Below, in pieces: positions 1,118 through 56,702 of a DNA stretch of 64,000 bases. The notes below the pieces were generated by a model, which worked only from the letters and a program-made list of their open reading frames with translations, was not told the DNA's origin and searched no databases. This stretch comes from Microcoleaceae cyanobacterium (lineage in GTDB: Bacteria > Cyanobacteriota > Cyanobacteriia > Cyanobacteriales > Microcoleaceae). Each line of letters begins with the position of its first letter. The stretch's first letter is position 1. The translations under genes and the position numbers were made by a program. Location of the stretch: positions 1 to 64,000 of the forward strand of contig JBOFUV010000118.1 in the NCBI GenBank assembly GCA_051652765.1, written 5' to 3'.

Positions 1118-4100
1118 TTAAACGTGCTTTTTTAATAACACCTTAAAAGTGTTGTACATGTCTTGGGCAAGCTTCCTCGGATTCCATAACGGCGCAAGTT
1201 GCTGGGGTTGTTTTGACTGAATTAAATGTTCTCGAATTTGCTCCCTTAACTCCCGATTCTGACCCAGTTGAACCCCAAGTTCAATGTACTCATCCCAACT
1301 CCAAGCCACACCGAAATCTAAATGTGCAGCCTTCAAAAAAGCATAGCCCATGCGGGAGAGATACTGTCCGCCTGAGCGCGTTAACACGGGTAAGTTTGCC
1401 CAAAGTGCCTCCAGGTTATGAGTCCCACCATTATAGGGATAGGAATCTAAAAGAACATCAGCAACCCCATAAATGGCTCGGTGCTCTTCTTCAGTTTTTG
1501 TTAATCCAATAAACAAAACTCGGTTAATATCAACGTCCAATGTTTTACAGGCCTGAGTGTACATTTCTTGAATCACGGCGTGATCTCCTTGACCTTTGCG
1601 GAGCAGGATGGCATCCGGCATAAACTTCAAGATTTTAACCTGGGCTGCCACCATGTCAAAGTTTGTTTTTCGACCCGGAGCAACACATAAATACACCATT
1701 TGATCGATCCCAATTCCAAGCTGTTGTCGGGCTCGATTGCGTTCCACTGTAATAGCCGGGAAACCATCAATGGCCACTGACGTTTCTGGTAGGCGAATCA
1801 GTTGTTCAAGATAGAAATCATCCATACCAAACGGATGACTATGTTCGTCACAGAGAAAGTAATGTTGATTGGATAAATAAGGAGCATCAAATCCGAGCCA
1901 AGTTGCACAAATTGGAGCAGGGGAATAGTGCAAAACCTGAGCATTTACAGGAACCGTAATTGAGTCCAAATCCAGCAGAATATCAATTTGATCCTGAACA
2001 ACTTCTTGAGCAATTTCTTCTGGGGACGCAAACCCATTGGGATAGGCTTTTGGCCAGTAAAACTTACTCACCGTCTGTTCAAAACTTTGGGTTAATTGAT
2101 CTGAATTCAACCGCCCTGTAACATACAGGTGAACATGAGGCGTAATCTGAGATAGTTCCCGAATCAATGCTTGACTGCACCACCCTACAGAATGTCGTCG
2201 AAAATGTTTAGATAGAAAACCAATTCTCAGAGGCTGAGTGCTCAACTTCTCCTGCCGATTGACCCGAATTTCTACCTGAATTTCTAATGGTTTAATTCGA
2301 CGTTTTTTGTAATAAGTTTCCGCAATTAGTCGATAAAATTGAGCATTCTTTTCGAGATCGTCGCGAAGATGAGACAGGGTAAATAATAGGATTTCATAGA
2401 GAATATTAATCTCTGTCACCGATAGATTTTTGAGTTGAGAATAGCAGATTGCTTCAAGTTCTAAAAGCTTTTCCAGAGCAGCCTCACAAGACCCTGATTG
2501 AGTATAGGCAAAAACATAGGCAATTCTGGATAATACTGGAGCAAGATTGCCACAACTTTGACAGTACCGATCTGTTGCTTCCCTGGCCTTTGCTAAACGA
2601 GTAGAATGGCTCAGCAAATCACATAGTTGCTGATGGGCTTCAAGATAATCTGGCTTTAACTCAACTGCTTTTTCTAAGTGGATAACGGCTTTGTGAGGAT
2701 GATCTTGCTTTTGAATGTGAGCTAAACGGCAATGTACTTCTGGCCAATCAGGTCGAAACTGCAAGGCATATTCAAAGCTTTTAATTGCCTTCTCAACTTG
2801 GCCTATTGTAGAGTAAATATTAGCAATATTGTTGTAGGTTTCTGAGGAATTGGGTTGTAACTTAATTAACCGTTGATACTGAACAATTGCGTCTTGATAT
2901 CGCCCAAGTTTAACTAGGGTATAGCCAAAATGAAGGTACAACTCTGACAAATCGGACTTGATTTCAATCGCTTTTTCAAAATAAGGAATGGCTTCTGTGT
3001 GACGGCCTTGCTGCGATCGCACACACCCAATATTGGCATAAGCTTCTACCCAATCTGGTTTCAAAGCAATTGCTCGTTGGTAGCTTTGTATGGCTTCTTC
3101 CCACTTGCCACGCCGAGCCAAAGCATTGCCAAATTCAAAATTAAATCGGGGTTCTACCAAGTCAGGCTGAAATTCTAACGCTTTTTGCCAACAGGCAATC
3201 GCGGCTTCTTCTTGCTTTAACTGTTGAAAAACTTTACCCAAATTCCAATGGGCAGCAGCTAGATTGGGACACAATTCAATTGCTTTTTGATAGCAATCAA
3301 TTGCGAGCTGAGTTTGTGCTTGCCTCGTATAAAGCGTACCCAGATTTGTATATACTTCAGGTAGGTTAGCTTGTAATTTTAAAGCCTGTTGATAAGCGTG
3401 AATTGCCTCCTTCGTTTTTCCTTGACAGGTATAGGCATTACCTAAATTAATATAGGCCAAAAACTGATGGGGCTGAAGCTTTAAAATCTGGGAACAGAGA
3501 TGAACCACTTGCTCAAAGTTTTTCTGCCTAAAACTCTCTTCGACTTGTTGCTGATAACTCTGAACTCCGGCATCACTATCAAAGCTGACTAAACCTTGAG
3601 GCTGATCAACTAGAAATTCTTCAAGTTCTTCAATTAATAGATGTTCGGTAGTTGTGTCATTCCAGGAACTATCCTGCCGATCAATTTGTCCAGATAGCTC
3701 AATTCCTCCCTCCTCAAACTGCTCACTTCTCTCTGCACAATCTGAAGAGAAGTTTAATTCAGTTAAGCTTGATATAGGCAAGTTTAATTCAGGTGGGTTT
3801 TGAATAAAGCTTGCTTGATTTTGAGATTGACTAAGTTCCGTTAATTTGGCATGAGCAATTTGATGATCAGGTTCTAAAGTCAAGACGGTTTGATAACAGT
3901 TGATTGCCTCTTCAGTTCTTCCTCGATCTTGTAAATTTTGGCCAAGTTTAAGATAAAACAAAGCTTGGTCAGGCTGTAACTGAATGGCTCTGTTGTAACA
4001 GAATTCTGCCTCGTCAACCCGGTCTAATTGAGTCAAGGTATTGCCTAACATCCAATGAATAGAGGCTTGCTTGGGTTGAAGTTTTAGTGCGGCTTTATAA

Positions 4101-7586: not shown

Positions 7587-8267
7587 GTGATGTCAACCCA
7601 GCCCTACAGTGAAGATATTGATATTGCTCCGTTGATTGATCATACTTTCCTCAACCAATCTGCCACCCCGGAACAGATTGAACAGTGTTGCCAAGAGGCC
7701 GATCGCTATCACTTTGCTAGCGTTTGTGTTTACCCCTGCTACGTGCAGCAGGCAGCGGATCTACTCCATGGCAAAAAGCCGAAAGTTTGCACGGTGATTG
7801 GATTCCCCACTGGAGCTACAACTGCGGCAGTAAAACTGTATGAAAGCTTGGAAGCCGTGGAGCTGGGAGCAACGGAACTGGATGTTGTGATTAACTTGGG
7901 TTGGTTGAAAGCAGGAAAAATTGATGAGATGTACCAGGAAATTGCGGCAATTTGTCAAGAAACCAATCAAACAGTAAAGGCAATTCTGGAAACTGCGGTG
8001 CTGACTAATGCCGAAAAAAAAATTGCCGCAGAAGCCTTACTGGATGCGGGGGTCACCTTTCTCAAAACAAGTACGGGGTGGTACGGAGGAGCAACGGTTG
8101 AGGATGTACGATTCCTAAGGGAAGTGACGGAGGCACAGGTGGGGATCAAGGCTTCAGGCGGAATTCGCTCCCATGAGCAAGCAGTAGACCTTATATTGGC
8201 AGGAGCAACCCGTCTAGGAACTTCCCAGGGAGTTGAGTTACTCCAGCAACGCAATGCTGATCACTGA
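7587..8267 (+). CDS. deoC: Deoxyribose-phosphate aldolase
   Basis: [51 protein letters not shown]. Confidence 0.97.
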
Positions 8268-8340: not shown

Positions 8341-9264
8341 ATGAGTCAGACCTACAGCGCGACTGGAATCAACTTAAAAGGCATTCCCCTGGGAGAATCA
8401 GATCGATTGCTGACGATCCTAACGCGAGAATACGGAATTGTTCGAGCGGTTGCACCAGGAGCCCGCAAGACCCGATCCCAACTGGGGGGGAGGGCGGATT
8501 TGTTTGTCGTGAACCATTTGCTACTAATGCGGGGGCGATCGCTCCACAAAATCTCCCAAGCTGAAACTCTCAAGTCCTACAGTGGACTGAGTCGAAATTT
8601 AGGCAAACTTGCAGCGGGTCAGTACTTGACTGAACTGGTTTTAACTCAGGCATTGAGTGACCAACCCCAAGAAGAGCTGTTTCTACTACTGAACAACCAT
8701 CTAAATCGGCTTGAGGGGCTACCGAACCCACCGGGCAGCGAAACCTGTTGTTCTATACTAACGTGTTTGGCCCATGGCACCTTTCACTTGTTGGCCCTGG
8801 CTGGACTGGCCCCTCAGGTTCATCTCTGTTGCCTGACTCAACGCCCAATTTTGCCAGATGTTCAGGATGCCTATTGGCAAATCGGGTTCAGCATCAACGC
8901 TGGAGGCATAGTTAGCTCCTTCTCATCTCACTCTGGGCAATCTCAGAATTTGGCCCTAGAATCCGGCGATTCCTATGGCTCGAATGCGGCCTATCAACCG
9001 GAGATTAAAATCAGTACTCGATTGAGCGGGGCCCAAGTTGCCTTACTGCAACAGTTGACCTATCCTGAACTAACAGAAGCACTGCAATCGGGGTGTTCCC
9101 TGGGCGTTCAGCGCCTAAATCTTCCTGCCCCTCCAGCCTTATCAGATTGGATGCTGATTGAACGTCTGCTCAGGCAATATGCTGAATATCATCTAGGACG
9201 GGGAATTCGATCCGCATTGCTGGTTGATTCCTACGTTCAGCAGTCCCAGTTCGCCAGACCTTAG
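8341..9264 (+). CDS. recO: DNA repair protein RecO
   Basis: GINLK..PLGESDRLLTILTREYG.VRAVAPGARK; adjacent to deoC. Confidence 0.95.
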   Translation: MSQTYSATGINLKGIPLGESDRLLTILTREYGIVRAVAPGARKTRSQLGGRADLFVVNHLLLMRGRSLHKISQAETLKSYSGLSRNLGKLAAGQYLTELVLTQALSDQPQEELFLLLNNHLNRLEGLPNPPGSETCCSILTCLAHGTFHLLALAGLAPQVHLCCLTQRPILPDVQDAYWQIGFSINAGGIVSSFSSHSGQSQNLALESGDSYGSNAAYQPEIKISTRLSGAQVALLQQLTYPELTEALQSGCSLGVQRLNLPAPPALSDWMLIERLLRQYAEYHLGRGIRSALLVDSYVQQSQFARP

Positions 9265-12228: not shown

Positions 12229-13047
12229 TTACTGTAGATTAAATGTTGCTTTTACTGGGCGATGGTCACTTTTGCTTTGATCGTCCGGACAGTAGCTGGT
12301 TTGAGGATAGAGAATCTCAGCAGAGGCTGGCCAATTCTTCGCGCTCCCTGCAACAAATACAAAATCCAAGACACTGTCATAGCGATCGCTGCACTGGGTT
12401 GCAGTCAAAGTCTGAGGTCTGACCCAGCGAAGCACCTGATCTTGAGTCATCAGATCATAGCCTTGATCTCGCTTTGACTCGCCTCGCACCACATCCCAGT
12501 CAAAGTTGTAATCTCCCAGGGCAATCACCGGTAAGGTTTGCTTTCGGGCCCATTGGTTCAATAGACGAGCTTGTTCATGGCGACGGTCATTGCGACTTCG
12601 GTAGAGATGGTTCACCATAAATAGGAACTCTGTGCCCGTTGGTTTGAAGCGAAAGTGCGCGACTAAAGGCGCTCTACCATCTCCACCGATGTTAATTGAG
12701 CCCAATTCATCGGATTTGAGCTTCTCCAGGTAGCGACGATCATAAAGAATTGCCAATCGATCCGCGTCCCCTGTAGTTCCCAGAATGATCTGAAAGTCAG
12801 TTGATCGAGAGTTCGCGGCCTTCGCAAACTGCTCAACCCAGGAGGCATCAGCAACTTCAGAGAATCCCCAAAGCTTACTCTGTCCAAGGGGTTTAATGTA
12901 CTGTTGCGCGATCACATCAGGATTGGCATCACCCGACTCAACGTTAAATCCAATCACAGTTAAATTAGGCTGGGTAGTAGGCTGGGTAGGCTGACAACCT
13001 GTAATCACCAGTAGAGTCAACCCTAAAACAGTCAAGAAACGTCTCAT
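12229..13047 (-). CDS. Endonuclease/exonuclease/phosphatase (EEP) family lipoprotein
   Basis: From ATG 13047: signal peptide and lipobox (MRRFL...ITGC); FNVE, FSEV, MVNHL, GDYNFD, LDFVFV, SDHRPV catalytic motifs. Confidence 0.88.
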   Translation of the reverse strand: MRRFLTVLGLTLLVITGCQPTQPTTQPNLTVIGFNVESGDANPDVIAQQYIKPLGQSKLWGFSEVADASWVEQFAKAANSRSTDFQIILGTTGDADRLAILYDRRYLEKLKSDELGSINIGGDGRAPLVAHFRFKPTGTEFLFMVNHLYRSRNDRRHEQARLLNQWARKQTLPVIALGDYNFDWDVVRGESKRDQGYDLMTQDQVLRWVRPQTLTATQCSDRYDSVLDFVFVAGSAKNWPASAEILYPQTSYCPDDQSKSDHRPVKATFNLQ

Positions 13048-13100
13048 CGTTGGCAATTGATCGTTAGTAATTGATCGTTGGTAATTGATCGTTAGTAATT
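13046..13100. repeat. Tandem repeat, 14-bp unit (ATCGTTRGYAATTG) x4
   Basis: ATCGTTGGCAATTG ATCGTTAGTAATTG ATCGTTGGTAATTG ATCGTTAGTAATT, abutting the EEP start codon. Confidence 0.9.
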
Positions 13101-20909: not shown

Positions 20910-21301
20910 GGGGCATTCCTGGTTTCGACAGGGTGACGAACGCTACTTTGTGATGCAGGCCGAGAGTAAGTTGTCTCTCGTATAATCCCCAACTTAAAAA
21001 AAATAAGTGCAAACAACATTGTCGCTTTCGCTCGTCCTCGTGTAGCTGTAGCTGCCTAGGAAAACACCTCTTTCAGGTTCGAGCATTTGTAGTCTGACTC
21101 CGTTAAAGATTACAAATTTAACCCCCAACGGATGTGTTAGTTAAATGCATCTGGTCATCTAACTGACGAGACTTTACCAGAGTCCCTGACTGTTCTAGGG
21201 TAATGTTCAGTCCCCGCTCTGAGGGTTAAAAGAGCTACGCCTGTGAATGAGCAAAGAGTCAATACTCATTCTGGACATGGGTTCGATTCCCATATGCTCC
21301 A
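20910..21301 (+). ncRNA. ssrA: tmRNA; tag peptide ANNIVAFARPRVAVAA* at 21009-21059; CCA not encoded
   Basis: 5' GGGGCAT..GGTTTCGAC; 3' T-arm ATGGG-TTCGATT-CCCAT and acceptor strand ATGCTCC-A with G3-U70; cyanobacterial ANNIV-type tag ending in AA. Confidence 0.97.
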
Positions 21302-21320
21302 CTCTTGGGAAATTGTTTTA

Positions 21321-26035: not shown

Positions 26036-27616
26036 CTAGCATAGGAAGTCTTCTAAAGTAGAACATGAGTTGTGGATCAATGATTTTTGGGTCAATGATT
26101 TGTGGGTGAATAAGTAGACTTCATCCTGTTGATAACTCAACTGAAAATCAGGTAGCTGTTTTAGCTGTTGTGCCAAAGATTGGGCAAATTCCAGATCACT
26201 TTTCCATCCCGGATGACGCAGGTTTAGCAGTACGTAGTCAAACAGAGCTAAATCTTGAGGTGGAGCATCTTTATTCGTAAATTCAACCACTGAACGATGG
26301 GTTAAATGGGGGGCAAAGTTTGCTGTCGTTAAAATATTTCCTTGAGTTGTTATATAACTGATTGCCGTTCTGCTGGACTGTAAAGTATCAATTTGTTCCA
26401 GATAAATTGACCAAAAATAACCAAACTTTGCCAAGCATAAAAATCCTAAGATTGCCCAAAGGATCATCAATTGATCTAATTTAATTTTTAGAAAGAAGTC
26501 ATTTAAAGAAAAGTAATTTAAAGAAAAGCAATATTTTTGCCAAGCCTGTAAACGGATGATGATCCATCGCCCTAGACACCCATCATGCTCATCGGACAGA
26601 CTGGTAATCACGGCAACCATCAAAAATGGAACAATGGGGATAGAATATTGATGAATTAAATCTCGTTGGGCATCGATATCAGATAGAACGTTCTTCAGTA
26701 AAGCGGGAAAAGCTGCCACTAAAGGACTCAGACAACGGGGAGATAGCCACAATACAACTGGCAAGAATAGCAGAGCTAAATACTCTAAAGTCTCCCATGA
26801 AAGTATTCTGTTGGTCACCAATTCGGGCTTTAAAAAAATATTCAGCAGAATTTCAGAAATAGAACTCCCTAAGTAGCTGTAGCGTCCAACTCCTCCTGGC
26901 CCTCGACCATCTTTAAAATAGGGGATAATTCCTTGAACTGCAATTATAAACCAGGCTGATCCAAGCAATAGCGCGATCGCACCATAAGGTCGCTTCTTGT
27001 CAAAAAAATAGAGCCAAATCCCCATAGCAACAACAGTTAAGGCCAGAGCATCCTTACACCCTAAAACCCAAATAATGGCTAGGTAAAACCAAATTATTTT
27101 ATCTAATCTTGCAGCTAAAATTGCTCCTAAAATAGCAGGCAGTGCCATTACTTCTGGATGAAAATCAAAGAGATTAACATTAAAAATAACTGGATAGAGT
27201 AAATAAGTAAGAGCAACTGAAGTTGAGAGTCTTGAACCTAACCCAGCGTGATTAGCTAAACTCCAGGTTGGCCATGCACCAATTGCCAAAGAAATGGATT
27301 GAATCAAAAATAACCAATGCACTGAAGGATAAATTCTATATAGCAAGGCAACTGGATACATTACCCAAGCAGCATGATTCCCCATGTGATGAATTTCCAA
27401 AAAAGAGGAAATCGGTGGCTTGCCTTGACTGATTAAGTAAGCAACTTGATCATAAATTCCCAATTCAAAAGCAGTTGATTGAAATAATGCATGTCGGAGA
27501 CTACTGCACAAAAACAAAATCACCGTAGTAATACCAACCATTTTTGCAACTGGATGGTTAAAACTGAGTTGTTTCTGCCCTTTGAAGTCGTAACTAAATT
27601 TCATTCTGAAGGCCAA
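26036..27616 (-). CDS. DUF2079 family membrane protein (paralog 2)
   Basis: SLRH..FQST.FELGIYDQ, NLFDFHPE, PHLTHR, LLNLRHPGW; start codon uncertain. Confidence 0.85.
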   Translation of the reverse strand: MAFRMKFSYDFKGQKQLSFNHPVAKMVGITTVILFLCSSLRHALFQSTAFELGIYDQVAYLISQGKPPISSFLEIHHMGNHAAWVMYPVALLYRIYPSVHWLFLIQSISLAIGAWPTWSLANHAGLGSRLSTSVALTYLLYPVIFNVNLFDFHPEVMALPAILGAILAARLDKIIWFYLAIIWVLGCKDALALTVVAMGIWLYFFDKKRPYGAIALLLGSAWFIIAVQGIIPYFKDGRGPGGVGRYSYLGSSISEILLNIFLKPELVTNRILSWETLEYLALLFLPVVLWLSPRCLSPLVAAFPALLKNVLSDIDAQRDLIHQYSIPIVPFLMVAVITSLSDEHDGCLGRWIIIRLQAWQKYCFSLNYFSLNDFFLKIKLDQLMILWAILGFLCLAKFGYFWSIYLEQIDTLQSSRTAISYITTQGNILTTANFAPHLTHRSVVEFTNKDAPPQDLALFDYVLLNLRHPGWKSDLEFAQSLAQQLKQLPDFQLSYQQDEVYLFTHKSLTQKSLIHNSCSTLEDFLC

Positions 27617-27745
27617 AGTTTCTTGTTTCAGTCATAGCTATAAGTCATAACAGATTTTGCGTTTTAAACCCGTGAGTCAGACAAGATCTAAGATTATCTA
27701 AAGGACGTTAGAAAGAAGTAAAATACTATGAATTTTCATCGGTCA

Positions 27746-29293
27746 TCACACAGAATCTCGCCTAAAGACAATAACATCCTTCTTGGTGTAGATTACTTTG
27801 AATCCAGAGCCATTTTCTAATTTCTGTACCAAATTGACTCCGGTTTCTATAGTATCTGGCCAGGGATGACGAAGATTAAGGAGAATAGCATCAAATTCAG
27901 TCAAGTTAGACTCTGGAGTGATTTGACTCAATAGTTTAAGGTTAAAACGATGGGTTAAGTGAGGAGCAAGATAGTTATCGGTCAAGACAGTTTCTTGAGG
28001 GTTAATTTGAGCAATGGCTGCTCGATTGGCTTGCAATGTATCTAATCGTTGAAAATATATCCAGAACCGGACATACTTACCGTAAAAGACAAAAATTAGT
28101 AAAGACCAAAGTACGATTAACCTGGGAAGGCTAGCATTAAAGTCAGGCGATCGTGAAAGTTCTTGCTTACTTCTGTCAGGGAGTTGATATTGATGTCCAG
28201 ATCTCATTCTAGACCAAAGGTTCCAACCCCATTTTCCTAATGTCCAATCTTGTTGTTGGAAGCTGGCAATGACCGCTAGGAGCAAGAATGGAATGGCTGG
28301 AATGGAGTATTGAAAGGCAAGGCTTCGCTGGAGAGAAACATCAGACAAACTGTTAATCATCAAGGTTGGAATCACTGGAATCAAGGAGGTTAAAGACCAA
28401 GGAGATAACCATCCAATGAAAGGCAAGCTTAGTTTATAGAGATAGTCGAGGGTGGGCATTGAAAATAATCGTCCGAGAACTAATTGAGGCTTGAGAATTA
28501 AGTTAGTAATAATTTCTAAAACAGAATTTCCTAAATAGGCGTATCGCCAAACCCCCTCTGCTTCCTGACCACTAAAATTGGGAATCATTACCTGGGTCAC
28601 TAGAATAAACCAAGCACACCCCGCAGCAAGGGCAAATCCACCAAACTTTCGGCGTTTCTCATAGAAGAATAACCAAAATCCCAAGGCGATTACCGTTAGG
28701 GACAATACCGCTTTACAACCCAATACCCAAAGAATTGCCAAACAGAACCAGGGAAATTTCCCCAGTCGAGCGGCTAGAACTGCTCCTAATAGAGCAGGAA
28801 GGGCCATCACTTCTGGGTGGAAATCAAACAAGTTAACGTTAAAGACCACTGGATAGAGTAAGTAGGCAGCGGCGATCGCCCTCGACAAGGGTTGATCTAG
28901 CCCCGCCTGTTGGGCCAAGCTCCAAGTTGGCCATGCTCCGAGAGCTAAGACCAGAGCTTGCATCCCGAACAACCAGTAAACACTGGGATAAATCTTGTAG
29001 AGTAACCCGAGGGGATAGATCGCCCATGCGCCGTGATTGCCCAAATGATGAAATCCTAAAATTGAGGAGATCGGAGGCTGCCCCTGACTGATGAGATAGG
29101 TGACTTGATCATAAATACCCAGGTCAAACCCCGTGGACTGAAATAGAATATGACGCAAGCTGCTACACAGAAAAAAGAGAAAACTTGCCCCAGCCATCAT
29201 CCAGAGCACTGAGGCGGGAGGCAGACGATTGGGTTTTACTGAAGGGGAACAGTCTGGCGGGGAACCTTCAAGAGAATCAAACGAGGTTGGCAT
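27746..29293 (-). CDS. DUF2079 family membrane protein (paralog 1)
   Basis: SLRH..FQSTGFDLGIYDQ, NLFDFHPE, RY.YLG.S, PHLTHR, LLNLRHPW. Confidence 0.85.
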   Translation of the reverse strand: MPTSFDSLEGSPPDCSPSVKPNRLPPASVLWMMAGASFLFFLCSSLRHILFQSTGFDLGIYDQVTYLISQGQPPISSILGFHHLGNHGAWAIYPLGLLYKIYPSVYWLFGMQALVLALGAWPTWSLAQQAGLDQPLSRAIAAAYLLYPVVFNVNLFDFHPEVMALPALLGAVLAARLGKFPWFCLAILWVLGCKAVLSLTVIALGFWLFFYEKRRKFGGFALAAGCAWFILVTQVMIPNFSGQEAEGVWRYAYLGNSVLEIITNLILKPQLVLGRLFSMPTLDYLYKLSLPFIGWLSPWSLTSLIPVIPTLMINSLSDVSLQRSLAFQYSIPAIPFLLLAVIASFQQQDWTLGKWGWNLWSRMRSGHQYQLPDRSKQELSRSPDFNASLPRLIVLWSLLIFVFYGKYVRFWIYFQRLDTLQANRAAIAQINPQETVLTDNYLAPHLTHRFNLKLLSQITPESNLTEFDAILLNLRHPWPDTIETGVNLVQKLENGSGFKVIYTKKDVIVFRRDSV

Positions 29294-50928: not shown

Positions 50929-52143
50929 TTAGCTGAGCAACACGGCTTCATAAGCCTGACCTGCCTGTTTCCAAGTGTACTCGGATTCGATCAGCGATCG
51001 CCCATTTTGGGATAATTGCTGCCTGAGGCAGTCATCTTCAAATAACTGACCAATTGCTCTAACATAATCCAAGACTGTATTGGCTCGCAAGGCTCTCAGG
51101 GGAACGTTGGTTCCATCCACTGCTAGCCCCTCTAGACCGCGATCGCTGGCTACAACCGGAACTCCTGTGGCCATTGCCTCTAAGGTTTTGTTCTTGATGC
51201 CGAAACCTGTTCGCATAGAAATTACACAAACCGTCGCTTGATTTAAATATTCGGCCATTGAAGGAACTCGACCTGTTACTTCAACCCCAGGACATTGGGA
51301 TAAGGCTTGAACTTCAGGCGTGGGTCGAGATCCAACCAACCCTAGGGTGGTGTCCGGGTAGTTTGCCTGAACCGCAGGCAGAATTTCTAAGGCCAAAAAT
51401 TGAGCCGCATCGATATTGGCTAAGTTGTCCATGGCTCCCACAAAAATTAATCGATGCCCGCCTGGGTCACTAGCACGATAGGGAAAGGTGTCTAAATCCA
51501 CCCCGTTGGGAATCACCGAAATTTGGGCTTGGGGATTAAAGGCGTTGAGTTGGTCTCGGTCATCCTCAGTGGTGGCGACAATTCGGGAAAACTTGGAACA
51601 ATAGCGCTTTTCGTAGCGATAAAGCAGGGGGAGATTCAGGCGATCGCGCCAAGGCTTTTCCGCCGTGCCTGTTTCCAACTGTTGACGACAAGTTCCGTAG
51701 ACTGAACTGTGAATATTGACCACTGTTTTCAACTGATGTTGCCACTGGGGTCGGACGTAGATTTCATTCACGCTGTGTTCACAGGTGATCGCCTCAAAAG
51801 TTCCGCTCTGAACCCATTGGTCAATTTGTTGTTGCATCTGAGGCGAATAATTGGACAGCACGCTGGGGGGTGTGCCTTGGGTGAGGAACTGAGCAAAACG
51901 ACTGACCTTGCCAGAAATTCCTGCAGGGCCATTGGCAGTTTGGGGTCGAGGAAACACGGCCAATTCGTCCACAATCTGACGCAGCGCCTCAATTTCTGCC
52001 TCCGTGACATCGGCTGAACGCTGGGTAGCGACCGTGATAGAATGACGTTGGCTTAAGTATTGCAGAAGATTGCAGGTTCTAACTTGTGTTCCTCCCCGAG
52101 TTGGAGGATAGGGAAAAGTTGCAGACAGCATTAAGATTTTCAT
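50929..52143 (-). CDS. Glycosyltransferase family 4
   Basis: MKILML...PYPP..GG, VIPNGVD, G.GIKNKTLEAMA.G.PVVAS. Confidence 0.93.
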   Translation of the reverse strand: MKILMLSATFPYPPTRGGTQVRTCNLLQYLSQRHSITVATQRSADVTEAEIEALRQIVDELAVFPRPQTANGPAGISGKVSRFAQFLTQGTPPSVLSNYSPQMQQQIDQWVQSGTFEAITCEHSVNEIYVRPQWQHQLKTVVNIHSSVYGTCRQQLETGTAEKPWRDRLNLPLLYRYEKRYCSKFSRIVATTEDDRDQLNAFNPQAQISVIPNGVDLDTFPYRASDPGGHRLIFVGAMDNLANIDAAQFLALEILPAVQANYPDTTLGLVGSRPTPEVQALSQCPGVEVTGRVPSMAEYLNQATVCVISMRTGFGIKNKTLEAMATGVPVVASDRGLEGLAVDGTNVPLRALRANTVLDYVRAIGQLFEDDCLRQQLSQNGRSLIESEYTWKQAGQAYEAVLLS

Positions 52144-52332
52144 CGAGCCAAATTGCCTAGGATTTATCCCTGAGTTGGAGTGATTCTAAACGTTGAGTCT
52201 TAGCAATTTTACTGCTTGACGAGGAAAAGACGGCAATGATTCTAGTAAAGGTGTAATCCTTTAAGGTTTAGTGCCTAAGGTCTAAAGTTTAATTCCTAAC
52301 ATTTAGTTTCCGGAGTTTAATAAAGTTTAATT

Positions 52333-52366
52333 TTTAAAATTTCATCTTTAAAAATGAAATTTTAAA
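52333..52366. repeat. 13-bp perfect inverted repeat in divergent GT4/GT2 promoter region
   Basis: TTTAAAATTTCAT-N8-ATGAAATTTTAAA; AT-rich, so significance is modest. Confidence 0.55.
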
Positions 52367-52402
52367 GTTTAATACTTGAAACCTAATACTTGAAATTTAA
52401 TA

Positions 52403-52609
52403 CTTAAAGCCGAATGCCTAAAGTTAGTATTTGTATTCCAACCTTCAATCGAGTTCAGTTGTTGCCCTTGGCCATCGAAAGTGTACTTCAACAAACAGAG
52501 CCAGATTGGGAATTGCTGGTTTGTGATGATGGTTCAAACGATAGAACTGCTGCGTTGATGTCTCAGTATACCGATCCTAGAATTCGTTACATTCGCCATC
52601 CTCAGAATA
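52403..52609 (+). repeat. 207-bp direct repeat, copy 1 (GT2 5' end)
   Basis: Matches 53284-53490 except A52429/G53310 and A52543/G53424. Confidence 0.97.
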
Positions 52610-52728
52610 ACGGTGGGCAGAAGGTGAAGGAACCAAGCCAGCAAGTTGTTATTAGTGCAGTAAACTTAGGAGGGGTAGTTGACAGAAATTTACTCTGGTT
52701 ATTTAAATGCTCCAGTAGTTTTAACTGA
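52414..52728 (+). pseudogene. Truncated copy of GT2 gene (first 65 codons, then unrelated sequence)
   Basis: MPKVSICIPTFNR...YIRHPQN matches 53295 ORF, then diverges; lacks the DDDD motif. Confidence 0.85.
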
Positions 52729-52999
52729 GGCGGCAATTGAACATATCCAAGATGAACACAAAAATACCTATCCGCTGTTTAGACAGGAGATTGTAGAAAC
52801 AGTCTCAAATCCAGATACCGTTAGGAGAAGCGCTAAAGATGGCATTTCTGTTTTGTTTGAAAAGTGGTTTGATACAGCTCTAAATGGAAGGTTCTATATT
52901 GTGGCCACTATCAGACGCGATTCCAACTCATACCGAATTAAGACTGCTTTTCCATCTAAGAAACCAGCAAAAGGAGAAGTACTGTGGAGAAAAAATTAG
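52679..52999 (+). CDS. Putative RNase toxin (PBECR/DUF4258-like, BECR/RelE-type fold)
   Basis: AGGAGG RBS (52668) before TTG; V.LT....EHI...H, I.ET..NPD.VRRS, IV......Y.I.TAF, K.GEVLW pattern; family call from memory of the motif. Confidence 0.65.
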   Translation: MTEIYSGYLNAPVVLTEAAIEHIQDEHKNTYPLFRQEIVETVSNPDTVRRSAKDGISVLFEKWFDTALNGRFYIVATIRRDSNSYRIKTAFPSKKPAKGEVLWRKN

Positions 53000-53256
53000 T
53001 CATTCGCTACAATCCAGCCCAGGGCTATTTAGCAATGGATAAAGGCATTTCACGCTATTTTGAGCAAGATATTGAAGAAATAGAGGAAGGTATTCTCTGT
53101 CGCACCAATCCCGAAACTGGAGAAATTGAAAATGTTGACCTCATGTACTTTTCTGCCGAGGTTCCTGGAGAAGAACGAAGAAAGATGCTGGGCCGAGCAG
53201 TTGAGCTTCTGTGTGGTTTGGACAGTGCTGTAATCCCAGTTGCCTACATTGCCTAG
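52984..53256 (+). CDS. Putative antitoxin (DUF2283-like)
   Basis: AAGGAG RBS (52971) before GTG, overlapping the upstream ORF by 16 nt; acidic; L.I.YN....YL, EEIEEGI..R.NP.TGEIEN..L pattern. Confidence 0.65.
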   Translation: MEKKLVIRYNPAQGYLAMDKGISRYFEQDIEEIEEGILCRTNPETGEIENVDLMYFSAEVPGEERRKMLGRAVELLCGLDSAVIPVAYIA

Positions 53257-53283
53257 TCCAAGTAATCGCAATTTAACGTAGTG

Positions 53284-53490
53284 CTTAAAGCCGAATGCCT
53301 AAAGTTAGTGTTTGTATTCCAACCTTCAATCGAGTTCAGTTGTTGCCCTTGGCCATCGAAAGTGTACTTCAACAAACAGAGCCAGATTGGGAATTGCTGG
53401 TTTGTGATGATGGTTCAAACGATGGAACTGCTGCGTTGATGTCTCAGTATACCGATCCTAGAATTCGTTACATTCGCCATCCTCAGAATA
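53284..53490 (+). repeat. 207-bp direct repeat, copy 2 (start of intact GT2)
   Basis: 881 bp downstream of copy 1; 205/207 identical. Confidence 0.97.
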
Positions 53491-54233
53491 TTGGCAAAAG
53501 TAATAATATGCGTTCGGGGTTTGAGGCAGCAACGGGGCAATATTTCATCAAATTTGATGATGATGATCGGCTGACTTCAGGATTTCTTGAAAAAACAACG
53601 ACGATTTTAGATCAATATCCCGGCGTTGATTTTGTGGGTACGGATCACTGGATTATTGATATTAATAACGTTCGCGATCAGGCTGCTACAACTGAAAATT
53701 CTAACCGTTGGGGTCGCTCCAATTTACCCGAAGGCATTGCCAATCCCTTGCTGAATATCATTTTTGTGCAACAAAGCTTTCAAATTGGCGCAACTTTATT
53801 TCGGCGAGCTGTGTTGCAAGCAGTCGGGTACATGCGACCGAATATCCAAAACTGCGAAGACAATGATCTATTGGTGCGATTGGCGCTGGCAGGAAAACAG
53901 GCGTACTATCTGCCAGAACGCTTGATGGAATATCGGGTTCATTCAGAGCAACAGGGCTTGGGCCGAGCTGTTCCTTATCTCCAGGATAAATTGCAATATT
54001 TAGACAGCTATCGGTTTGAGGATGAGACTTTAGAACAGATTCGGCAATCTCGTTTTACTGAAACTCAGTTGCTCCTGGGATTGCGCCTGATTGAACAGGG
54101 CAATACGCAAACAGGAAGACAGTTAACTTGGGCAGCCAAACAATATTCTCCCGCCAAGGCTTGGGCCGGATTATTCCTCTCAGTTCTTCCTTTACCGTTG
54201 AGGCATCAACTGTTTAACCGTCTGAGGAGGTGA
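53295..54233 (+). CDS. Glycosyltransferase family 2
   Basis: VSVCIPTFNR, VCDDGSNDGT, KFDDDD, CEDNDL. Confidence 0.93.
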   Translation: MPKVSVCIPTFNRVQLLPLAIESVLQQTEPDWELLVCDDGSNDGTAALMSQYTDPRIRYIRHPQNIGKSNNMRSGFEAATGQYFIKFDDDDRLTSGFLEKTTTILDQYPGVDFVGTDHWIIDINNVRDQAATTENSNRWGRSNLPEGIANPLLNIIFVQQSFQIGATLFRRAVLQAVGYMRPNIQNCEDNDLLVRLALAGKQAYYLPERLMEYRVHSEQQGLGRAVPYLQDKLQYLDSYRFEDETLEQIRQSRFTETQLLLGLRLIEQGNTQTGRQLTWAAKQYSPAKAWAGLFLSVLPLPLRHQLFNRLRR

Positions 54234-56565: not shown

Positions 56566-56650
56566 TCGATTAGATCCAGTAAAACTTGAGAAGGAAATCA
56601 ATACAACTTTTGGCACGGGCATCTTGCTGGTGAATTAAAGATTAGCTCAA

Positions 56651-56702
56651 TAACCTAGCAAAGTAATCTAGCAAAGTAACCTAACAAAGTAATCTAGCAA
56701 AA
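56651..56702. repeat. Tandem repeat, 13-bp unit TAAYCTARCAAAG x4
   Basis: TAACCTAGCAAAG TAATCTAGCAAAG TAACCTAACAAAG TAATCTAGCAAAA. Confidence 0.9.

Follow-up and report, generated by a model that had tools for sequence, protein, structure and literature searches.

A putative toxin-antitoxin cassette between two near-identical copies of a glycosyltransferase gene start in a Microcoleaceae cyanobacterium

How chromosomal toxin-antitoxin (TA) modules spread without a linked transposase or integrase is poorly explained. This question is raised by a locus of a Microcoleaceae cyanobacterium in which a small TA-like gene pair is enclosed by the beginning of a glycosyltransferase gene (GT2) and its near-identical duplicate, and we addressed how the pair came to be placed there and what the likeness of the two copies means. 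The window, that is, the whole 64-kb stretch of DNA that was analyzed, belongs to contig C118 of a 5.04-Mb draft genome in 158 contigs (G000). The features of the locus are the following:

50929..52143, minus strand: GT4 glycosyltransferase gene, the divergent left flank (Pfam Glyco_trans_1_4, E 3e-23)
52321..52405, plus strand: degenerate 14-bp tandem array, 5' of where the native GT2 starts (two TRF rows, period 14)
52403..52609, plus strand: repeat copy 1, the dead copy, with the 11-nt GT2 leader and the first 65 codons
52414..52728, plus strand: truncated GT2 frame of 104 aa, made of 65 GT2 codons and 39 foreign codons
52610..53283, plus strand: cassette of 674 bp, single copy, without terminal inverted repeat or attC-like site
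52679..52999, plus strand: ORF1, 106 aa, PBECR-like predicted RNase toxin, with a TTG start and AGGAGG 5 nt upstream
52984..53256, plus strand: ORF2, 90 aa, divergent DUF2283-family partner and predicted antitoxin, with a GTG start and AGGAG 7 nt upstream
53284..53490, plus strand: repeat copy 2, with the leader of the intact GT2 gene and its first codons
53295..54233, plus strand: intact GT2 glycosyltransferase gene, 312 aa (Pfam PF00535 Glycos_transf_2, E 1e-31)

The first-pass annotation had described near-identical repeats around 674 bp with two overlapping ORFs, each behind a ribosome-binding site, and this anatomy was confirmed when the sequence comparison was recomputed. The direct repeats at 52403-52609 and 53284-53490 agree at 205 of 207 bases with a spacing of 881, and each comprises 11 nt before the ATG and 196 nt of the GT2 gene (65 codons plus 1 nt). 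They form the sole long near-identical direct repeat within the window; in the source genome, the 207-bp sequence occurs as two near-identical copies only and the 674-bp insert once. The two mismatches, A at 52429 against G at 53310 and A at 52543 against G at 53424, change GT2 codon 6 (Ile/Val) and codon 44 (Arg/Gly), respectively, and the Arg at codon 44 of the dead copy was found in none of the 27 GT2 orthologues read. The left copy starts where the 14-bp tandem array ends, and the truncated GT2 frame overlaps the start of ORF1 by 50 nt. No HIP1 site was present at the cassette junctions, the nearest being at 51640; promoter and terminator scans gave counts at chance (4 vs 3.4 and 1 vs 1.0), and an Rfam search of the window returned tmRNA alone. 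Elsewhere in the window, short intergenic tandem arrays of period 13-14 were seen at 13046-13100 and 56643-56694, the tmRNA gene lies at 20910-21304 with neighboring scanned ORFs that belong to no integrase family, and two DUF2079 membrane-protein genes stand in tandem at 26039-29293; nblA and a cytochrome b6-type gene are also encoded, a gene content that points to a cyanobacterium.

The nature of the cargo was approached through homologues and models. ORF1 matched the Pfam families PBECR3 (E 9e-6) and PBECR2 (E 8e-5), both under the cut-off, and had 97 homologues at E <=0.001, itself included, the closest other being 42% identical. In an alignment of 81 homologues, H22, H27, P45 and G70 were almost invariant, and 34 of the 81 matched PBECR2. 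The AF2 model of ORF1 (pLDDT 96) had BrnT as its best fold match in VIA, at a middling Z of 7.3 (rmsd 3.1, 76 aligned), followed in the next top rows by CdiA and RelE/ParE toxins; a Foldseek search with the model returned nothing at E <=0.001. ORF1 is thus predicted to have a BECR (BrnT/RelE-like) fold and to be a putative toxin. The same check by structure failed to place ORF2, whose model (pLDDT 84.5) gave a best fold Z of 5.8 with no clear match. ORF2 itself had no Pfam match, and its Atlas match to a cluster containing DUF2283 scored 0.79 only; a metagenome scan with it yielded 10 weak, short matches (28-50%). It is, nevertheless, 28-34% identical to 16 downstream partners of ORF1 homologues (in BLASTP, a 57-aa stretch of one relative aligned at 35%, E 6e-12), and all 19 aligned relatives match DUF2283 (PF10049); the two near-invariant Asp residues of these aligned relatives are absent from ORF2. 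Neither ORF matched NCBIfam or PADLOC, and both were singletons in the 90% protein clusters, where no close homologue beyond the window's own proteins was present.

Across the order, profile matches were present in 119 of 401 genomes, and a partner gene adjoined the ORF1 homologue in 52 of the 58 loci examined. The 16-nt overlap between ORF1 and ORF2 recurs frequently among homologous pairs. The cassette thus belongs, as a divergent representative, to a two-gene module that is widespread and has a type II TA layout, and is likely a toxin-antitoxin pair; the earlier proposal of a BECR-like toxin with a DUF2283-like partner therefore stands, as a predicted fold and a conserved pair.

The ancestral state of the locus was sought among GT2 orthologues, which were present in 34 of 61 genomes, G000 counted; GT2 matched no NCBIfam equivalog above the cut-off. 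Neither a duplicated start nor a module was found in any of the 29 orthologue loci fetched. In the same-genus genome G002, GT4 and GT2 are divergent across a 160-bp gap and GT2 is single-copy with 74% nucleotide identity; this genome and 28 further loci thus provide the empty single-copy target, in support of the earlier view that a single-copy GT2 is ancestral. A degenerate GT2 pattern matched no metagenome contig, and no same-species empty allele was recovered there. The gap between GT4 and GT2 is a variable slot over the loci L002-L030, empty in G002 and occupied by other genes elsewhere, such as a Npun_R2821-family gene in L005. In L004 (1206-1364 / 3654-3935), the first 53 GT4 codons are duplicated (81% over 80 nt), and the duplicate lies beyond GT2 and one cargo gene; the G002 GT4 orthologue is broken across two frames (L002:98-1341).

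The age of the arrangement was revealed by X1, a public biofilm run from an RNA library, available as contigs and the one run with part of the locus. Alignment at 85% gave four contigs, which cover the locus except about 52235-52582 and 53453-53887. An 891-nt contig aligns to 52823-53448 and then returns to 52601-52848, and hence contains both cassette/GT2 junctions. It differs from the window by 66 substitutions in 874 positions (7.6%), compared with 44 in 369 (11.9%) for the GT4 flank contig and 25 in 290 (8.6%) for the 3' part of GT2. Moreover, the 891-nt contig has a 14-nt insertion at the GT2 start, behind 53293, that resembles a unit of the tandem array, and its GT2 fragment is 33 nt shorter than in the window. 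Because a relative diverged by 8-12% possesses the same cassette and both junctions, the arrangement is old, and the earlier assumption that near-identity marks a recent event was contradicted by a cassette and junctions shared at about 92% identity. Near-identical flanking repeats, we caution, cannot date an insertion.

Because the duplication is older than a split of about 8%, a comparable distance would be expected between the two copies, and more so since one copy is dead. To find no more than two differences over 207 bases has a probability of 3e-4 at 6% divergence and 6e-6 at 8%, and yet only 2 of 207 bases differ; consequently, either the copies were re-homogenised or the cassette was re-integrated from a conspecific donor. 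We infer that the 205/207 identity needs continuing recombination between the copies or such a re-integration. Base by base, 40 of the 112 places that differ between X1 and the window were listed, and up to 9 more substitutions near the piece ends fall outside this list; on the listed differences, between 3 and 17 of 156 bases of the GT2 fragment differ. For the same 40 of 112 differences, ORF2 showed 9 synonymous and 3 non-synonymous changes (about 60 and about 210 sites; ratio near 0.1), and its GTG start codon in the window is ATG in X1. In ORF1, the changed codons were 7 synonymous (71 sites) and 9 non-synonymous (247 sites), and the indels sum to +3. These comparisons indicate that ORF2 is under strong purifying selection and ORF1 under a weaker one; the 9 non-synonymous against 7 synonymous changes and the loss of the consensus-like residues A18 and N83 suggest that ORF1 may be decaying.

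The ends of the 891-nt contig overlap by 30 nt, and the lengths agree with a closed cycle of 861 nt (881-33+14-4+3 = 861 = 891-30) made of the cassette and the GT2 fragment. Its depth was 14.4, against 3.7, 3.9 and 4.1 for the other three X1 contigs (about 3.7 times the flanks), a ratio that does not represent copy number because the contigs were assembled from an RNA library. None of the X1 contigs links the cassette to GT4 or to the remainder of GT2. A free circle, a tandem array or an effect of the assembly could each underlie the cycle; if the assembler clips the weakly covered exits of an integrated single copy, an identical cycle results. The integration of an 881-bp circle, as proposed in the first-pass annotation, gains a hint from the 861-nt cyclic contig, and not a proof.

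To place the locus among its relatives, we hand-picked 60 loci, one per genome and far from contig ends, among 150 listed profile matches; two had no callable ORF and were dropped, which left 58 modules. Flanking direct repeats were called at >=28 nt and >=80% identity within <=700 bp on each side. By this measure, 17 of the 58 modules (29%, 15 genera) lie between direct repeats, compared with 4 of 161 ORFs of the same loci and 27 of 1794 slid windows (1.5-2.5%), which provides a measured signature for one TA-like family. Stricter settings gave 9-14 of 58 modules against 0.4-0.9% of controls, and the enrichment was stable over five threshold settings; the Fisher p of 6e-8 is overstated, since related genomes are not independent. 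Seventeen of the 60 loci had previously been viewed at short range, and 12 of the 41 new scored loci were flanked. No flanking repeat was detected around the other 41 of the 58 modules. The repeat is the end of a neighboring gene in 7 of the 17 cases, with the module on the strand of that gene in all 7. The ends in question are 3' ends for alaS, for pdxA and for four large genes without a name, whereas a Rieske-type gene (L112) contributes its 5' start. In the remaining cases, the repeats are intergenic, HIP1-containing or orphan tails. The frequent repeat-flanked siting suggests that related modules can move without a mobility enzyme of their own.

Individual loci of this sample deserve description. 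In L112, which belongs to a different genus, a PBECR-partner pair is surrounded, in the geometry of the GT2 locus, by a repeat of 172 bp and 92% (7661-7832 / 8523-8694) that comprises the Rieske-type oxygenase gene's leader and start. L117, L118, L119 and L126 share one PBECR-partner cassette with its repeat, 93-97% identical over 830-1050 bp, in three genera and differing neighborhoods. As a related cassette is this similar across three genera in different contexts, modules of this family travel. Homogenisation is not a general property of such repeats, because copies in the R-M-tail arrays were no more alike within genomes than between them (85% vs 83%, and 83% vs 83%).

In the source genome, all three PBECR matches sit between direct repeats. 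Of 69 close repeat pairs in a search of the whole genome, 58 were retained as low-copy; once the GT2 locus, pairs of paralogues, contig edges and a single unexplained pair had been set aside, 14 loci were examined, and 50 of their ORFs were scanned, most taken from a list of 97. Ten loci were of TA type, one held XisI, two Uma2 and one an unannotated cargo (C71), a count without matched control. The C71 repeat (84012-84155 / 91190-91333; L149), 144 bp at 99.3%, spans the leader of an AMP-binding enzyme gene together with its start; the 7 kb inside contain four ORFs (130, 229, 281 and 1253 aa), none matching Pfam, of which the three larger had no PADLOC match. No integrase was seen, neither G001 nor G002 gave a DNA match to the cargo ORFs, and the geometry is as at GT2. 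At C148:104500-111260 (L148), an array of TA-type pairs, PBECR and DUF2283 genes included, stands behind an Eco57I-type R-M gene, with about seven copies of the 3' end of that gene, 67-93% alike, as spacers. At C130:69780-71537 and C12:1-1600, the repeated 5' starts are of an apparent DNA methyltransferase gene (by eye), with TA-type pairs between them, and some of the starts are fused to the following ORF. Further low-copy direct repeats, on C10, C65, C109 (two sites), C116, C123, C141 and C144, have genes of the families MNT-HEPN, PIN, ParE, Fic/Doc, DUF433-DUF5615, XisI and GNAT-TacA between them.

On balance, we believe it somewhat probable that the GT2 locus is an old long-duplication insertion at the start of the gene whose 207-bp repeats are still exchanging by homologous recombination. 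In this proposal, one illegitimate join would have placed the module beside a 5' fragment of GT2, and a crossover within the GT2 fragment would then have enclosed the module by two copies without disrupting GT2; the 14-bp tandem array, at whose end the left copy begins, may have assisted. The arrangement is present in a relative about 8% diverged. To judge from the 205/207 identity, the copies would since have recombined by pop-out and pop-in of a circle of about 0.86-0.88 kb, with unequal exchange between chromosome copies or gene conversion as alternatives at this step. We propose that the toxin would act against cells that lose the cassette by pop-out, so that the cassette would be retained by addiction, and that the module would be transcribed by read-through from the native GT2 promoter. 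A host gene end would serve as the docking site and host recombination would do the work of an integrase, as would hold for the family's other modules in cyanobacteria.

The explanation that survives best beside this one is a fixed old insertion, from which the module never leaves, with occasional gene conversion between the copies and a cyclic contig that is an assembly effect. We regard it as rather unlikely. In its favor, a repeat-cassette-repeat locus gives a cycle in a de Bruijn graph, the RNA library accounts for the higher depth of the module, and the divergence of the cassette runs in step with that of the flanks (7.6% vs 8.6-11.9%), as vertical descent predicts. However, X1 retained no branch into GT2, the contig has 3.7 times the flank depth, and family modules do travel, as the 93-97% identical cassette in three genera attests.

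A remnant of an integrase island with a replacement GT2 start, a passenger of an IS1634/IS1549-type element mobilized in trans, or an integron cassette would be another origin. Islands that replace 5' ends leave the topology of old start, cargo and new start, which the locus fits, and IS1634/IS1549-type transposases make long target duplications. The genome contains seven tyrosine-integrase matches, and broken fragments at C74:39585-39925 and C138:3271-3423 resemble the N-terminal part of the integron-integrase model, far under the cut-off. Nevertheless, no integrase or transposase family was found among the 54 window ORFs scanned (16 + 38), and all seven tyrosine-integrase matches are on contigs other than that of the window, which upholds the earlier statement that no recombinase accompanies the cassette. 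The IS1634 or MITE origin was rejected, as NF033559 was not found in G000 (draft, 158 contigs) and terminal inverted repeats were lacking (best terminal match 8/14). The integron-cassette origin was rejected in turn: no TIGR02249 integron integrase exceeded the cut-off, and the search for an attC pair in the cassette gave one RYYYAAC, no downstream GTTRRRY and no stable hairpin. Eighteen cassettes compared had no common end motif, and their repeats of 28-207 bp lie on unrelated targets. These origins are accordingly very improbable.

It had also been suggested that excision or the toxin is a selected switch that tunes GT2 expression and the surface glycan under stress or phage attack. The module does lie between the native promoter region and the intact GT2 in the same orientation, and the arrangement has persisted over about 8% divergence; however, GT2 is intact whether the cassette is in or out, addiction explains the persistence equally, and neither ORF had a PADLOC match. 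Because modules of the same kind occur on unrelated gene ends (alaS, pdxA, R-M-like and Rieske), GT2 seems to be an incidental setting, and the switch found no support and seems highly doubtful to us. Finally, the 205/207 identity and the singleton status of both ORFs in the 90% clusters might point to a misassembly, or to one recent event that arose de novo in this strain alone. This is hardly credible and essentially refuted, barring independent insertions in two lineages at identical junctions, since the cassette and both of its junctions recur at about 92% identity in the independent run X1, so that the locus is probably not misassembled.

Beyond the old insertion with exchanging repeats that we prefer for this locus, we tentatively raise a broader possibility, which we consider less than probable, that cyanobacterial TA modules are a class of integrase-free mobile cassettes, which would capture a host gene end, leave as a sub-kb circle through host recombination and dock again at that gene end in sister chromosomes or other strains, much like an integron that lacks its integrase. 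If true, the 861-nt cycle in X1 would represent the module after release or amplification, a form missing from the 'virus-like life cycle' hypothesis for R-M systems. The GT2 locus provides a small testable model for such questions, with an old duplication, copies 99% identical and a cyclic form in independent data.

Insertion with long target duplication was reportedly described for R-M systems by Nobusato in 2000. The passages of Furuta, Abe, and Kobayashi (2010; PMC2853133) on this class define it for R-M systems, list a Microcystis case (88/88) and show that flanking repeats are enriched around R-M genes. Its authors note that experimental evidence for release of the R-M unit is lacking, and the DNA breakage common to R-M types is suggested as the cause. 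The GT2 locus shares with this class an addiction-type cargo of <20 kb, a duplication of >30 bp and no other mobile element; the duplications of R-M insertions vary in length, up to about 420 bp, and often have a gene as target (PMC2853133). Against the definition in these passages, the duplication at GT2 is 207 bp (>30), the insert 674 bp (<20 kb), and an empty target was found. Unlike R-M insertions, the cassette contains no R or M gene; its cargo, PBECR-like plus DUF2283-like, is a TA-like RNase pair without a DNA-cutting enzyme, and the locus adds a cyclic contig and evidence of re-homogenised repeats.

Among TA systems, the nearest case is a ParE/ParD-like pair of Microcystis PCC 7806 that stands between direct repeats of 152 bp, identical to each other (Klemencic 2021, PMC7935541). 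As portrayed in the sections on this pair, it likewise is a cyanobacterial type II TA pair with long identical or near-identical direct repeats and a patchy distribution; it differs in its TA family, in non-coding repeats with an inverted repeat and in being a single case, and no recombination mechanism is found in those sections (PMC7935541). The predicted fold, the small overlapping genes and the toxin-first order are shared with BrnT/RelE-type BECR TA systems, whereas the partner here is DUF2283-like, a family not mentioned in the BECR-related passages of Iyer (2017, PMC5512222) and bioRxiv 10.64898/2026.08.28.747851. In the open-access literature, we found no paper on a tested PBECR-DUF2283 pair, and none, among open-access main texts, on repeat-flanked TA modules as a class, for which the supplementary figures of Furuta may hold cases.

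Two other systems resemble the locus in part. Integron arrays carry TA genes as small, apparently promoter-poor modules behind a fixed gene, separated by repeats. The modules described here are likewise small and stand behind a fixed gene with repeats between; unlike in integron arrays, there is no IntI above the cut-off and no attC, and the repeats are host gene ends. For rhs genes, displacement of the C-terminal part through homologous recombination that involves circular intermediates has been proposed (Jackson 2009, PMC2935791). The proposed circles join a conserved gene part and cargo without an integrase, as we propose here; the rhs cargo replaces the tip of the same protein, whereas the GT2 cassette is a free-standing pair that leaves the host gene unchanged.

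Taken together, the kind of insertion is already known, and what is new here is a TA cargo without a DNA nuclease, a measured enrichment, repeats that are old yet identical, and a cyclic contig. Because the cargo lacks a DNA nuclease, the comparison with R-M systems argues that host recombination and addiction, rather than an enzyme of the cargo, drive long-duplication insertion.
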